The notes under the pieces: generated by a model | What the model was told of the DNA's origin: nothing | Seen by the model: only the letters and a program-made list of their open reading frames with translations | The model's database searches: none | In this document: in pieces, positions 7,255 through 21,633 of the stretch | Numbering within the stretch: the stretch's first letter is position 1 | How the letters are laid out: each line of letters begins with the position of its first letter | Translations under genes and position numbers: made by a program | Assembly (NCBI GenBank): GCA_963719085.1 | Contig: CAVRAL010000004.1 | Span: 1,152,001 to 1,216,000 of the forward strand | DNA: 64,000 nt | Direction of reading: 5' to 3' | From: a candidate division FCPU426 bacterium | GTDB lineage: Bacteria > Oederibacteriota > Muellerivitia > Muellerivitales > Muellerivitaceae

Positions 7255-8135
7255 GCGCCCCCGCCCTCGTCCTTCAAACCCCCGCGAAGATCAATTGGGT
7301 CCTGGAAGTGCTGGGCAAGCGGGACGACGGTTTTCATGAGCTGGCCTTGGTTTTTCAGGCCGTCAGTCTTTGGGACGAACTTTCCTTTTATCCCCAAGAC
7401 CGGGGCCTGGAGTTGTCGATAGAGTCTTCCCCGGCGCCTTTGGAAGCCGATGATTCCAATTTGGTTTTAAAGGCGGCGCGGCTTTTTTTTGAGGCGGCCG
7501 GCATTCAGGCGGGAACGCGGATCGGGCTGAAAAAAAATATTCCCCTGGCCGCCGGGCTTGGCGGCGGGTCCAGCGACGCGGCGGCCACCCTTTGGGGGCT
7601 GAACCATCTTTACCAAACCCGGATGCCTTTGGAAAAACTTCAAGCTTTAGCCTCGCGGCTGGGGTCCGACGTTCCGTTCTTTTTGACCGGAGGCACGGCC
7701 TTAGGGACGGGCCGGGGGGAAATGATCGAGTCCTGGGAACCGGCGGCTGATTTTTCGCTCGTTTTGGTCAAACCCGAGGAAGGGCTTGCCACGCCGAAAG
7801 TTTACCAGTCAGGCAAGGCGGTCTTCACTCCGGGCGAAAAGGCCGGGAAATTAAAGCCCTTGCTTCAAACCCGTGACCCGCGGGCGGTGGCCCAGGGTCT
7901 TTTCAATGGGTTGGAGCCCGCCGCTTTTTCCTTGCTCCCGTTGGTCGAAAGCCTCAAGAATAGCCTGTTGAACGGGGGGGCTTTGGGCGCCCTGGTTTCG
8001 GGCAGCGGCCCGACGGTTTTTGCCCTGATGGAAAACGGCGAAGCCGCCCAAGCCTTGGCGAGAAAAATGAAGTCCCAGGCCGCCCATGTTTTTGCCGTCC
8101 AAACCGTTTCGGAAGGTCCCAGGATCCTCTCATGA
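7251..8135 (+). CDS. ispE: 4-diphosphocytidyl-2-C-methyl-D-erythritol kinase
   Basis: PAKINW, KNIPLAAGLGGGSSDAA, GSDVPFF, SGSGPTVF. Confidence 0.97.
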   Translation: MSAPALVLQTPAKINWVLEVLGKRDDGFHELALVFQAVSLWDELSFYPQDRGLELSIESSPAPLEADDSNLVLKAARLFFEAAGIQAGTRIGLKKNIPLAAGLGGGSSDAAATLWGLNHLYQTRMPLEKLQALASRLGSDVPFFLTGGTALGTGRGEMIESWEPAADFSLVLVKPEEGLATPKVYQSGKAVFTPGEKAGKLKPLLQTRDPRAVAQGLFNGLEPAAFSLLPLVESLKNSLLNGGALGALVSGSGPTVFALMENGEAAQALARKMKSQAAHVFAVQTVSEGPRILS

Positions 8136-9127
8136 AAAATAAAAAATCGAATTCCCCGGCGTCTAAAGGCTCCTGGCTCCCCAAAGTTTTGGGCTGGGTT
8201 GTTTTATTGGTTTTGGCTTGCTTCCTCGTTTTCATTTATTTCATCCTGCCGCCCAAGGTCGGGCAATCGATCGCCGACCGGGCCCAAATCCGAAAAGCCT
8301 TAACCCAAACGCCCAAGACGGACGGATTTCGTTATCAGGACGTCAGCTTCACCGCCTCCGACGGGGTGAGCCTCCAGGGCTGGTGGCTGCCCTCGGCGAA
8401 GAAAGGGAAACCCGAGGGAACGGTTATTCTTTCCCACGGGGTTTTTAAAAACCGGGAACAGGTCCTCAGCCGGGCGGAATTTTTAGCCAAGGCCGGCTAT
8501 CAGGTGCTTTTGTTCGACCTACGCGGCTGCGGGGAAAGCGGCAACAGCCCAGTTTCGGGCGGCCTTTTGGAAGCCAAGGATTACCTGGGCGCCTATGACA
8601 ATTTAGAGAAGACCCGCCGGCTTCAAAGCCCCGTGGTATTTTTCGGATTTTCCCTGGGCGCCATCGCGGCCTTGCGGGCGGGTCAACAGGAAGGGGATAA
8701 GATCCAAGCGATCATCGCGGACAGCCCCTTGCCCAACATTAAGGCCTATGTTTCCCGGCGCACCATGGGCGGCGGCTTTAGCGTTTTTCCGGGATTTCTC
8801 GGCCGTTGTTTAAAGGCCTACAACGCCTTAACCGGGCTTTCACTGACTCAAGAGGATTTGGACTTGTCGCCGGTGGTCAAGCAAATCACCCAAACCCCGG
8901 TGCTTTATATTGTGGGACAGAAGGATGACTTGGCCCGGCCCCCGGAAGTGCGGCAGTTGTTTGACTTAACGGCCGCCCGCCATCGCCGCCTGGATTACAT
9001 TCCGGACGCGGGGCATGACCAGACCTATTCCCAATACCCGGTGATTTATGAGCGGGGGGTCTTGGAGTTTTTGAACGATTTAAAAACGGGATTCCCCGAG
9101 CCGAAGCTTTCGGGCGCGGCGAACTGA
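8132..9127 (+). CDS. Membrane-anchored alpha/beta hydrolase
   Basis: N-terminal TM helix, HG, FDLRGCGES, GFSLG nucleophile elbow, D..H. Confidence 0.88.
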   Translation: MKNKKSNSPASKGSWLPKVLGWVVLLVLACFLVFIYFILPPKVGQSIADRAQIRKALTQTPKTDGFRYQDVSFTASDGVSLQGWWLPSAKKGKPEGTVILSHGVFKNREQVLSRAEFLAKAGYQVLLFDLRGCGESGNSPVSGGLLEAKDYLGAYDNLEKTRRLQSPVVFFGFSLGAIAALRAGQQEGDKIQAIIADSPLPNIKAYVSRRTMGGGFSVFPGFLGRCLKAYNALTGLSLTQEDLDLSPVVKQITQTPVLYIVGQKDDLARPPEVRQLFDLTAARHRRLDYIPDAGHDQTYSQYPVIYERGVLEFLNDLKTGFPEPKLSGAAN

Positions 9128-9147: not shown

Positions 9148-9284
9148 TTTCACCACGAAGTTCACCAAGTACACGAAGTTAAACATGAAATAATCCGACT
9201 AGCCCCATTTTCGGGGTCTTGAAGAAGATTTCGACTGAAAATAAGATTTCTTCACTTCGTGAACTTAGTGCACTTCGTGGTAAA
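9148..9284. repeat. Palindromic element family B (CACGAAG-unit arms)
   Basis: CACCACGAAGTTCACCAAGTACACGAAG ... CTTCGTGAACTTAGTGCACTTCGTGGTAAA between convergent genes. Confidence 0.8.
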
Positions 9285-9289
9285 TGGGC

Positions 9290-9670
9290 TTAAGGTTCCT
9301 TTTTCTTGAACCGCATGGCGGACCAGTCCTCGTTAAGCGAAACCAGCGATACCCCGTCCAGCCCATGTTTCGCCATCAAGGCGTGTCCCGTATCCCGGTT
9401 GTAATCCGACTTATATTTTTTGGAAGTTCCCTTCGGATAAGCTACCCAGAGCACGGTTTTTTCGTTCAATAACTTCGGCAGGATTTTCGCCAGTTTTTCC
9501 CCTTCGCCGAGCGATTTCACAAAACAAAGGGCGAAACCATATTGGCCCTGGGGCGCGGTATGGACCTTGACGCCAAAAGCTTTCGACAGGAGTTTGAGCT
9601 CGGCCGGCAGGCCCAAGAGCAAAACCGGTTGCTGACCTTTGAAAAAAAGCTTTTTGAGGATGGGGTTCAT
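9290..9670 (-). CDS. Conserved hypothetical protein (DUF3052-like)
   Basis: LWVAYPKGTSKKY..NRD and VSLNEDWSAMRF motifs. Confidence 0.7.
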   Translation of the reverse strand: MNPILKKLFFKGQQPVLLLGLPAELKLLSKAFGVKVHTAPQGQYGFALCFVKSLGEGEKLAKILPKLLNEKTVLWVAYPKGTSKKYKSDYNRDTGHALMAKHGLDGVSLVSLNEDWSAMRFKKKEP

Positions 9671-19878: not shown

Positions 19879-20118
19879 ATGGAATCCGACAATAAGACGG
19901 TTCATCAATCGACGATCAAGGTTAAAAGCGGGGAATACCGGTTTACGGTCAAGGACTCGCCCCGGTCAGGGCGCTATTTATTGATGGAAGATGTCCGGAT
20001 CAAGGACGGGAAATCCAGGGTTGAGCGGGTGGTGGTTTATCCCGAGCTCATCGAGGGTTTTGACGCGGAGTATCAAAAGGCGAAGGCTTTTATGATTCCG
20101 CCTCCGGCATCAACTTAA
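19879..20118 (+). CDS. PUR/DUF3276-like single-stranded nucleic-acid-binding protein
   Basis: Y.F.VK....GRYL.M.D...R.VVY.E..F pattern; AAGGGGA SD. Confidence 0.6.
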   Translation: MESDNKTVHQSTIKVKSGEYRFTVKDSPRSGRYLLMEDVRIKDGKSRVERVVVYPELIEGFDAEYQKAKAFMIPPPAST

Positions 20119-20126
20119 AAAAATTC

Positions 20127-20233
20127 TTTTACTACGAAGTACACGAAGTTCACAAAGTTAAAACAAGAGCATTTCTTTTGATTTGAAGAAAATTTAGCCT
20201 TACTTCGTGTACTTTGTGAACTTCGTGGTAAAA
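20127..20233. repeat. Palindromic element family B
   Basis: ACTACGAAGTACACGAAGTTCACAAAG ... CTTCGTGTACTTTGTGAACTTCGTGGTAAAA. Confidence 0.8.
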
Positions 20234-20252
20234 CGCCTTTTGTTGATTGATT

Positions 20253-20427
20253 TTAAACTTCTTGGCCTGCCGCCCAATCCCCGTAACGGCGTTTCGCCCG
20301 ATATCGGGCGAGTGCACGGGGACGGGCCGCCGGATGGATATATTTATACTTCCTGGCCGGCCGCCCAGCCCGACGCCCACTCCCACCGATAACCGCTTCG
20401 CCCAATCTTGGGCGAAATCGTAGGGAG
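20253..20427 (-). repeat. Two tandem units of hairpin plus displaced copy of the HI0933 gene's C-terminal codons
   Basis: 20344-20379 encodes WASGWAAGQEV*; 20253-20276 encodes WAAGQEV*; the gene ends WSSGWAAGQSV*. Confidence 0.8.
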
Positions 20428-20445
20428 GGTCATCGCAATGATATT

Positions 20446-21633
20446 TTATACCGATTGGCCTGCGGCCCATCCCGATGACCACGCCCACTGAAAGTTATAC
20501 CCTCCCAGCCAGCCGGTGACGTCGACGACTTCGCCGATAAAATAAAGTCCGGGGACTTTTTTCGATTCCATCGTCCGGGATGAGAGCTCATCCGTGTCCA
20601 CGCCGCCCCGGGTGACTTCGGCCTTGTTGTAACCCACCGTCGACTCCGGAACGATCACATAGTCTTGAATCGCGCGGCAAAAGGTTTCCAAGACCTTGTT
20701 GGAAAGGGTGGGCAGGGCCGCGCCCTCGGGCAGCTCCAATTCGCAGAGCCGATCGGCCAGGCGGTTGGGAAGTTTTTCCTTCAAGAGGGTCTTCACCTCG
20801 GATTTGGAACCTTTGCGTTTATAGTCCCAAAACCATTGGACAAGTTTGTCCGGGGTTTCACTCGGCACGAAATTTAAGTGAAGTTTGTTGTCCTGGCGCC
20901 AGTACAGGGAAATTTGCAGCGCCGCGGGGCCGCTGAGGCCCACATGGGTGAAGAGGATATTTTCCCGGAAAGAGGCGCTTCCGCAAGACACCAGGCAGTC
21001 GGTGGAAACGCCGGTGAGGTCCCCGAACTTTTTAAGGTCGGGGGCTTTTAATCGAAACCCATCCAGGGCCGGCGCCGGTTCCACGATCTTCAGCCCAAAT
21101 TGCCGGGCGATCTTATACCCAAAATCAGTGGCGCCGACTTTGGGAATCGAAAGCCCCCCGGTGGCGATGACGAGGGAGTTGGCGCGGAAGCTGTCTTTAT
21201 CGGTTTGGACGGTAAAGCCGTCGGTTTTCTCGATCGAGGTGATTGTGTGGCCCAGAAAAAACTCGGCCTTCGCCTGGCGGCACTCCTCGGTCAAAAGCGA
21301 GACGATATCCTTGGCCGAATAGTCGCAAAAAAGCTGGCCCAATTTTTTCTCGTGATGGGGAATTTTATGCGACTTGACCAATTTCAAGAAATCACCCGGG
21401 CCATAGCGGGACAGGGCCGATTTGACGAAATGGGGGTTTTGCGACAGGTAATTGTCGGGCCCGGCGCCGGTGTTGGTAAAATTACAGCGGCCCCCGCCCG
21501 AAATGAGGATCTTGGCGCCGACCTTTTCCGCGTGGTCGATCAAGGCCACCCGGCGTCCCCGTCTGCCCGCCTCCATGGCGCACATCATTCCGGCCCCGCC
21601 CGCGCCGATAATTAGAACCTCGAAATTTCGCAT
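20446..21633 (-). CDS. HI0933/BaiN (YhiN)-family flavoprotein
   Basis: IIGAGGAG, KILISGGGRCNFTN, ATGGLSIP, LFTHVGLSGPA, VTRGGV, GGYNFQWAW. Confidence 0.95.
   Translation of the reverse strand: MRNFEVLIIGAGGAGMMCAMEAGRRGRRVALIDHAEKVGAKILISGGGRCNFTNTGAGPDNYLSQNPHFVKSALSRYGPGDFLKLVKSHKIPHHEKKLGQLFCDYSAKDIVSLLTEECRQAKAEFFLGHTITSIEKTDGFTVQTDKDSFRANSLVIATGGLSIPKVGATDFGYKIARQFGLKIVEPAPALDGFRLKAPDLKKFGDLTGVSTDCLVSCGSASFRENILFTHVGLSGPAALQISLYWRQDNKLHLNFVPSETPDKLVQWFWDYKRKGSKSEVKTLLKEKLPNRLADRLCELELPEGAALPTLSNKVLETFCRAIQDYVIVPESTVGYNKAEVTRGGVDTDELSSRTMESKKVPGLYFIGEVVDVTGWLGGYNFQWAWSSGWAAGQSV

Follow-up and report, generated by a model that had tools for sequence, protein, structure and literature searches.

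What leaves several differently spelled copies of one gene end in a row behind a gene, and is a mobile element needed to do it? The question is raised by a locus on the minus strand of a 64,000-nt stretch of DNA (the window, whose positions serve as coordinates throughout) from the 3.04-Mb genome of an uncultured soil bacterium of candidate division FCPU426, labelled G000. At this locus a gene for an HI0933-like flavin adenine dinucleotide (FAD) enzyme of the aminoacetone oxidase family runs to its live end (E1) and is followed by two relics of that end (E2 and E3), with spacers S1 and S2 between them; the repeated units are called U1 and U2. An earlier note on this DNA had explained the array by a minimal hairpin element, about 100 bp long, which targets the 3' end, brings its own copy of it and has inserted or left scars there in series, with the recombinase or nuclease acting in trans or lost. 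Our analysis supports the serial addition of units and points to a different agent. On balance, we consider it probable that the array is a locus-bound stack of gene-end relics produced by serial local duplication of a self-complementary, structured gene-end module, with no dedicated mobile element or recombinase.

Three gene ends in a row and the search for a mobile element

The coordinates and letters given for the array in the earlier note all agreed on recheck, including the stop-to-stop spacings of 102 nt (to relic E2, which ends at 20344) and then 91 nt (to relic E3, which ends at 20253). The product of the live gene scored 404 bits against the NCBIfam model TIGR00275 (aminoacetone oxidase family; cut-off 183.8). 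Its stop codon occupies positions 20448-20446, and its C-terminus, ...GYNFQWAWSSGWAAGQSV* (asterisks denote stops), is matched almost letter for letter in orthologs and paralogs; the orthologs in 31 genomes of the family are 63-72% identical to it. The E2 fragment is present and is longer than had been described, comprising 15 codons (RWEWASGWAAGQEV*) that were recovered from a 47-nt repeat at 77% identity, and the homology of E3 extends about 10 nt further upstream with a 1-nt indel. Local alignment of the last 60 nt of the gene to the downstream DNA gave a z of 10.9, and none of 300 shuffles reached the score. Furthermore, a degenerate pattern of the end and the peptide WAAGQxV* occur three times each in the 3.04-Mb genome, in all cases at this locus. 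The proposal that the copies differ mostly at third codon positions holds moderately, since these positions account for 6 of the 11 differences between E1 and E2, all three between E2 and E3, and three of five between E1 and E3. Four of the codon changes between E1 and E2 are synonymous and four non-synonymous. The changes of Q to R and of A to E in E2 sit at residues that are invariant in orthologs, and E2 is therefore a decaying, untranslated relic.

The two units lie head to tail in the same order and are homologous along their whole length (71/102 identical positions overall, with 34/45 in the E part, 17/23 in the first part of the spacer and 20/34 in the remainder). The copies of the end are 77-81% alike and share exact runs of just a few bases; scars of old crossovers could have decayed. 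The motif TGGGCG or TGGGCC stands at the start of E2 and of E3 and twice within each end, as read from the letters. The array is real and no assembly artefact: a 333-nt contig of metagenome run X2, whose study is possibly the source of the assembly, spans 20204-20536 with zero differences, and a 154-nt contig from a second study (X4) spans 20240-20393, from E3 to E2, with one difference. No alternative junctions, joints, indels or unit-number variants were seen in the metagenome contigs of four runs, where X1-X3 are possibly the source sample and contigs drop rare variants.

A genome-wide search found the hairpins of the array at this locus alone. Within the genome itself, blastn-short and a pattern scan returned just the two local hairpins plus five unrelated pattern matches, and an nhmmer profile of both spacers gave only the two self matches below E 0.5. 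Among the 31 family genomes, S1 had no BLAST match with E < 0.01, S2 matched only the flank of the gene in G001, a relative of the same genus (92% over 25 nt), together with one 19-nt exact word in G007, and a covariance model of the bulged hairpin described below recovered its three training copies only, everything else having E >= 0.09 per genome. In addition, none of the 20 open reading frames (ORFs) in window positions 8132-33204, that is within about 12 kb, matched an integrase, transposase, nuclease or reverse transcriptase family; six of them had no Pfam match and the others include the kdp operon, flavin enzymes, a methyltransferase, a response regulator, a protein with a type IX secretion system (T9SS) tail and a C1 peptidase. 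Larger versions with a recombinase or nuclease between the live and the displaced end were absent from the 600-1500 nt downstream of 53 related loci, and a search of the 31 genomes with the tail peptide found no good orphan end except E2, with weak further matches in G024, G042 and G005 (E 0.05-0.08).

The footprint does resemble that of an integrating element, as the relics begin with TGGGCG at the foot of homologous hairpins and the live gene, like icd at the prophage e14, would run into the element and leave a pseudogene (icdC in that case) on the far side, as described in the excerpt of PMC13626634 used here. However, with no second copy in genome or family by any of three methods (BLAST, profile and covariance model), no recombinase nearby, no cargo version, orphan end or variant junction, copies that are 77-81% alike without a long identical core, and a spacer that derives from the gene end itself (see below), an integrating element of about 100 bp served in trans is unsupported, and we regard it as very unlikely. 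HI0933 loci of other lineages say the same: only three marginal matches were obtained among 153 of them, one from 74 metagenome loci and two from 79 genome loci, the latter mostly distant HI0933 genes used as background. Our literature search found no paper linking HI0933 to an integration site, and on displaced gene fragments, tandem duplication, stop codons and terminator hairpins it found nothing relevant on bacterial gene ends. The hairpin is nevertheless no unrelated dispersed repetitive extragenic palindromic (REP) sequence of the kind that the earlier note had contrasted with its own reading; the relatives have no cargo-bearing versions, and the hairpin is a conserved, locus-bound structure.

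Two other readings were considered. A diversity-generating retroelement does not fit, with no reverse transcriptase among the 20 ORFs, differences of mixed types and repeats of just 24-47 nt. For an integron attC-like reading of the bulged hairpin, the same ORFs include no integrase match.

The features of the locus are collected in Table 1.

Table 1. Gene, gene-end copies and predicted folds at the array (window positions)
Feature	Position	Strand	Evidence
Live gene, HI0933-like / aminoacetone-oxidase-family FAD enzyme, 395 aa	20446..21633	-	PF03486 (E 1.3e-92), PF22780
E1, live last 14 codons and stop, QWAWSSGWAAGQSV*	20446..20490	-	Family-typical C-terminus
E2, displaced former gene end, RWEWASGWAAGQEV*	20344..20388	-	47-nt repeat at 77% identity; 37/45 bases identical to G001 live end; 25-nt flank 24/25
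E3, oldest relic, WAAGQEV*	20253..20276	-	Repeat alignment; positional homologs in G001 and G002
Stop-spanning hairpin 1, E1 paired with first part of S1, stop in loop	20419..20490	-	RNA fold -29.9 kcal/mol, z -3.1, 2/200 shuffles; also in whole-array fold
Bulged hairpin 1 in S1, outer stem, inner 8-9-bp stem and 6-nt bulge on 3' side	20380..20427	-	DNA fold -14.6 kcal/mol, z -5.4; inner stem alone z -5.5; covariance model R1 53 bits
Stop-spanning hairpin 2, E2 paired with first part of S2, homolog of G001 live-end stem	20296..20396	-	RNA fold -56.4 kcal/mol, z -3.3, 1/200 shuffles
Bulged hairpin 2 in S2	20278..20322	-	DNA fold -15.1 kcal/mol, z -4.0; R1 58 bits
Long-range stem enclosing E3, then TTTT	20228..20297	-	RNA fold -18.9 kcal/mol, z -2.6, 3/200 shuffles; weak support

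Palindromic repeats of other families are carried by G000, a circumstance that would suit a small hairpin element. One of them, a palindromic element of about 140 nt at 20109-20251, starts about 20 nt past the E3 stop; it has ACGAAGT-type 8-9-mer arms and ends TTTACCAC...GTGGTAAAA, and about seven copies exist in the genome, the second in the window being at 9148-9284, between the ORFs at 8132-9127 and 9290-9670. The syntenic spacer of G001 is without it. We saw no link between this element, which has conserved ends of its own, and the array.

The gene end in relatives and stacks at other genes

The same-genus genome G001 has one live end at this gene, and the 25 non-coding bases that follow its stop are identical in 24 positions to the flank of E2. 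The coding part does not separate the copies, as E1 and E2 each share 37 of 45 bases with the end in G001. The flank makes E2 the positional ortholog of the live end and, therefore, E1 with S1 the newcomer. For E2, then, the proposal of the earlier note that each fragment had once been a functional gene end is borne out. Further downstream, G001 carries a bulged hairpin of the same architecture and of other sequence, and then a homolog of E3 with a 6-nt insertion, so the first displacement predates the split between G000 and G001. A shortened version of E3, with the inner hairpin lost, is found in G002, which belongs to another genus, and the whole relic has been lost in its congener G018. HI0933-like gene copies with in-frame stops, apparent pseudogenes, were also noted in relatives: nine such stops in G018 (C14:176721-177905) and three in G043 (C14:12119-13300).

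A newcomer need not have been made on the spot. E1 and S1 could have been imported from a diverged relative, pushing the native end E2 downstream, either by homologous recombination within the gene combined with an illegitimate join or by an unequal crossover between a relic of the donor and the live end of the recipient. Homology-facilitated illegitimate recombination is an established route according to the excerpt of PMC3240628 available to us, and E1-S1 is about 30% diverged from E2-S2 while the E2 flank is nearly that of G001. Moreover, the identity of the gene to its G001 counterpart is uneven along its length (81% of nucleotides in codons 1-60, 49% in codons 241-330), and at the protein level genes of other genera are closer overall (71-72%) than the one of the congener (67%). 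However, in codons 241-330 it is G001 that is divergent from every ortholog (44-56%), so the low-identity stretch does not mark G000 as foreign. No donor was found, S1 being without a match in the family genomes and the closest metagenome relative of the live gene being 67% identical. In addition, the inner hairpins of S1 and S2 are closer to each other (20/34) than either is to that of G001 (13-14/34), which fits duplication within the lineage. We regard an import of this kind as unlikely, although it is the alternative to local duplication to which we give most weight.

Displaced ends are not confined to this gene copy. Among 53 HI0933 loci from the family and a sample of the phylum, three showed a repeated end at z >= 4 (the locus itself, G002 and G009) and one at z 3.7 (G004, where the locus end reads SWAWASGGVAG*VA*). 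These loci represent at least three separate stacking events, counted with the caution that kin are not independent. One candidate for a replaced gene end, locus L012 (G023:C19), was rejected because a run of 23 N falls exactly in the last codons of the ortholog; the assembly gap in G023 thus lies where repeats would be expected.

Similar stacks were found at other genes of G000 when the last 60 nt of 2377 ORFs were compared with the 400 nt downstream. A score of at least 36 was reached by six of the 2377 ORFs, two of these in one repeated stretch of contig C5. At C4:81958 (-), RQTLKIAILH* is present twice with three synonymous changes and is joined by a third decayed copy, with a period of 47 nt; C4:957704 (-) has a three-copy stack, EGLVIPV* / ARLVIPV* / EGLAIPV*, and C4:368385 (+) carries EVSSLLEFIGLFQS* and EVISLLEFISLFK*. 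Further displaced 3'-end stacks were observed at C4:1004633 (+) and C4:1036523 (+), and T9SS-tail genes of this genome ending in KLLILR* are accompanied by a relic NWLILR*. An 8-mer common to the spacers of different stacks was discarded as a possible shared signal, as it shows no intergenic enrichment (19 of 185 occurrences) and its recurrence is likely due to chance.

Beginnings of genes behave in the same way. The same score was reached by 5 of 2368 5' ends, 5 of 2368 3' ends and 5 of 1061 internal windows, and thus displaced 5' ends appear to be about as frequent as displaced 3' ends, ORF starts being uncertain. Copies of the first 30-50 nt of an ORF lying 30-190 nt upstream (about 70-90% identity by eye) were observed at C1:430229 (+), C4:316120 (-), C4:936643 (-), C4:1120625 (+) and C4:447504 (+). 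The equal frequency at both ends, together with the occurrence at several genes, therefore makes local border duplication a low-frequency general feature of this genome, neither 3'-end- nor gene-specific, as expected for undirected local duplication filtered by selection. The stacking habit is lineage-bound, not gene-bound.

Alternative folds across the stop codons

Both bulged hairpins fold as had been described, and in neither case was any of 200 shuffles as stable. The array folded as one RNA forms three long hairpins with a stop codon in each loop, plus the small inner hairpin of S1 (-121.8 kcal/mol, z -3.9). For the strand that follows each stop there are two possible partners, the upstream coding end, which closes a stop-spanning hairpin, and the next relic, which closes a bulged one. 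The two folds are mutually exclusive; bulged hairpin 2 excludes stop-spanning hairpin 2 because they have the left strand in common. In G001 this stem occurs at the live end as a perfect helix of 10 bp (z -5.5) with TTTGATT after it.

The spacers owe part of this structure to the gene. The first part of S2 repeats the gene end imperfectly and in inverted orientation: aligned with the reverse complement of S2, E2 gave a score that 24 of 2000 shuffles reached, and E1 one that 19 of 2000 reached. The match of E1 to the reverse complement of S1 is weak (97 of 2000). As S2 holds an inverted gene-end copy, the spacer 'insert' derives from the locus and not from foreign DNA.

The conservation of these stems raises the possibility that the relics have been kept because they are functional, whatever their origin, either as a decoy in a two-state 3' RNA or as stem-loops in tandem at the 3' end, where they would terminate or stabilise the transcript ahead of the convergent gene. 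The mutually exclusive folds are suggestive in this regard. In addition, the architecture of the bulged hairpin (an outer and an inner stem with a 3'-side bulge of 6 nt) is kept across S1, S2 and G001, with 84% of cells paired against 37-61% with slid partners. In five pairs both partners have changed; 1 of 500 shuffles gave as many, and the figure is conservative for G001, because the MAFFT alignment places one inner-stem register off by one column. Conservation of the E2 stem and of its flank far exceeds the identity at third codon positions, and in G001 the relic forms another hairpin, followed by TTTAAC. However, the pair changes come from three sequences, two of them paralogs of one array, and template switching yields stems and apparent compensatory changes without selection, as the cited part of PMC8794818 reports. 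A simple scan found no canonical terminator on the minus strand in G000; the homologous stem of G001 is followed by TTTGATT. The Rfam 15 covariance models gave no match on the array, their weak hairpin-type matches (E >= 0.012) all lying on the neighbouring palindromic element. Furthermore, the inner hairpin has been lost in G002 and the whole relic in G018. Retention for function is improbable in our view, less so than the integrating element and more so than the import.

The more specific form of this idea, to which we likewise give little credence, is that the relics act as decoys of the last codons in a two-state 3' RNA element, whose fold could report the arrival of the ribosome at the stop, with duplication stacking such switches. 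If true, it would explain at once the 24/25 identity of stem and flank, the pair changes on both arms and the fact that an old relic still looks like a gene end.

Origin of the stack and comparison with known systems

The reading that we favour, serial local duplication of the gene end, would require two rounds by replication slippage, template switching or unequal recombination, each copying a module of about 100 nt that comprises the last 8-15 codons, the stop and the structured 3' flank. The module is self-complementary: in the predicted folds the GC-rich codons for S-G-W-A-A-G form the 5' arm of a stem whose 3' arm lies just past the stop, with the bulged hairpin next. The TGGGCG/TGGGCC repeats, which stand at two places within the coding end and again at the base of each bulged hairpin, may supply microhomology at the unit junctions, and template switching at imperfect palindromes can create and perfect such stems, as described in the excerpts of PMC8794818 and PMC7202029 on which we draw. 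Duplication across the stop would be tolerated because the gene keeps an intact end, older ends being shifted downstream and no longer translated. In the order of events suggested by the relatives, E3 would have been displaced before the split from G001, E2 would then have been the live end, as it still is in G001, and E1 with S1 would be the youngest part.

Several observations weigh against this reading. Similarity between the two units is limited to about 70%, whereas the 25 nt behind the E2 stop match the G001 flank at 96%, against an agreement of just 48% at the third codon positions of the gene in the two species. A neutral relic should be less well kept; its state calls for selection acting on the E2 stem or for E1-S1 having come in recently from another source. 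Local duplication alone leaves the conservation of the E2 stem and flank unaccounted for, and the two candidate answers are a stem under selection, possibly as a 3' mRNA stem-loop or part of a two-state fold, or a recent import from a diverged relative. In addition, E3 is a perfect gene end that differs from E2 only synonymously, though its homologs in G001 and G002 carry indels. At two paralogous loci in other genera (G004 and G009) the relics begin at almost the same codon (Q-W-A-W; L021), which also speaks for the element of about 100 bp; a near-common start fits microhomology, but a site-specific process would explain it too. A further point in favour of that element is the 30-nt hairpin in the spacer of the G009 paralog, which has a second copy (L226:770-800 = G009:C45:2571-2600; L025:1457-1486) that is 90% identical, has one G-C to A-T change in both arms and lies within an unrelated 346-aa ORF on another contig. 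This second copy resembles an intragenic palindromic insertion, and small mobile hairpins do exist in the family. Finally, just two genomes of the genus are available and the metagenome evidence consists of contigs, not reads, and the genome-wide scan used crude ORF calls (the longest ORFs, from 120 aa upwards, whose starts are uncertain).

The array nevertheless indicates that a pattern like the footprint of an integrating element, here a succession of differently spelled gene tails with a hairpin in front of each, can form and be kept in the absence of any detectable mobile element, which calls for caution in scans that take such stacks as scars of attachment (att) sites. It also records, on a small and datable scale, the stuttering of a gene end that is at the same time a stem-loop, with the stem kept and the reading frame not. 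If the alternative folds are functional, they would make up a 3' control element of an unusual sort, derived from a copy of the coding end.

The closest parallel among integrating elements is e14 (and phage 21) in the 3' end of E. coli icd, with its C-terminal pseudogene icdC, described in the part of PMC13626634 that cites Hill et al. 1989. As in our array, the live gene obtains its end on the upstream side, and downstream there remains a C-terminal fragment that is homologous and has diverged conservatively. However, the ends of icd are parted by a prophage of about 15 kb with its own site-specific recombination system, whereas here the gaps measure 66-67 nt, no recombinase lies within about 12 kb and the intervening DNA has no other copy. 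Homology-facilitated illegitimate recombination and the arrays made by 'sequential displacement', to judge from the excerpts of PMC3240628 and PMC5361080, are similar in that a join with one-sided homology lets older modules pile up downstream, but these arrays stack whole foreign genes, and ours consists of gene tails of 24-45 nt with no donor shown. Template-switch (quasipalindrome) mutations, in which inverted nearby copies give long stems and two-arm changes in one step (PMC8794818 and PMC7202029, in the same excerpts), recall the first part of S2, although they alter a few bases within one hairpin and here whole units of about 100 nt stand head to tail. Repeats of the REP, bacterial interspersed mosaic element (BIME) and miniature inverted-repeat transposable element (MITE) type also place hairpin-forming intergenic DNA beside gene ends; the neighbouring palindromic element, with its several copies, is of this sort, whereas the array hairpins are confined to their locus. 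Set beside these systems, the array adds one more case to an ordinary class of events, and what remains of interest in it is the conserved, locus-bound pair of alternative stems made from copies of a coding end.

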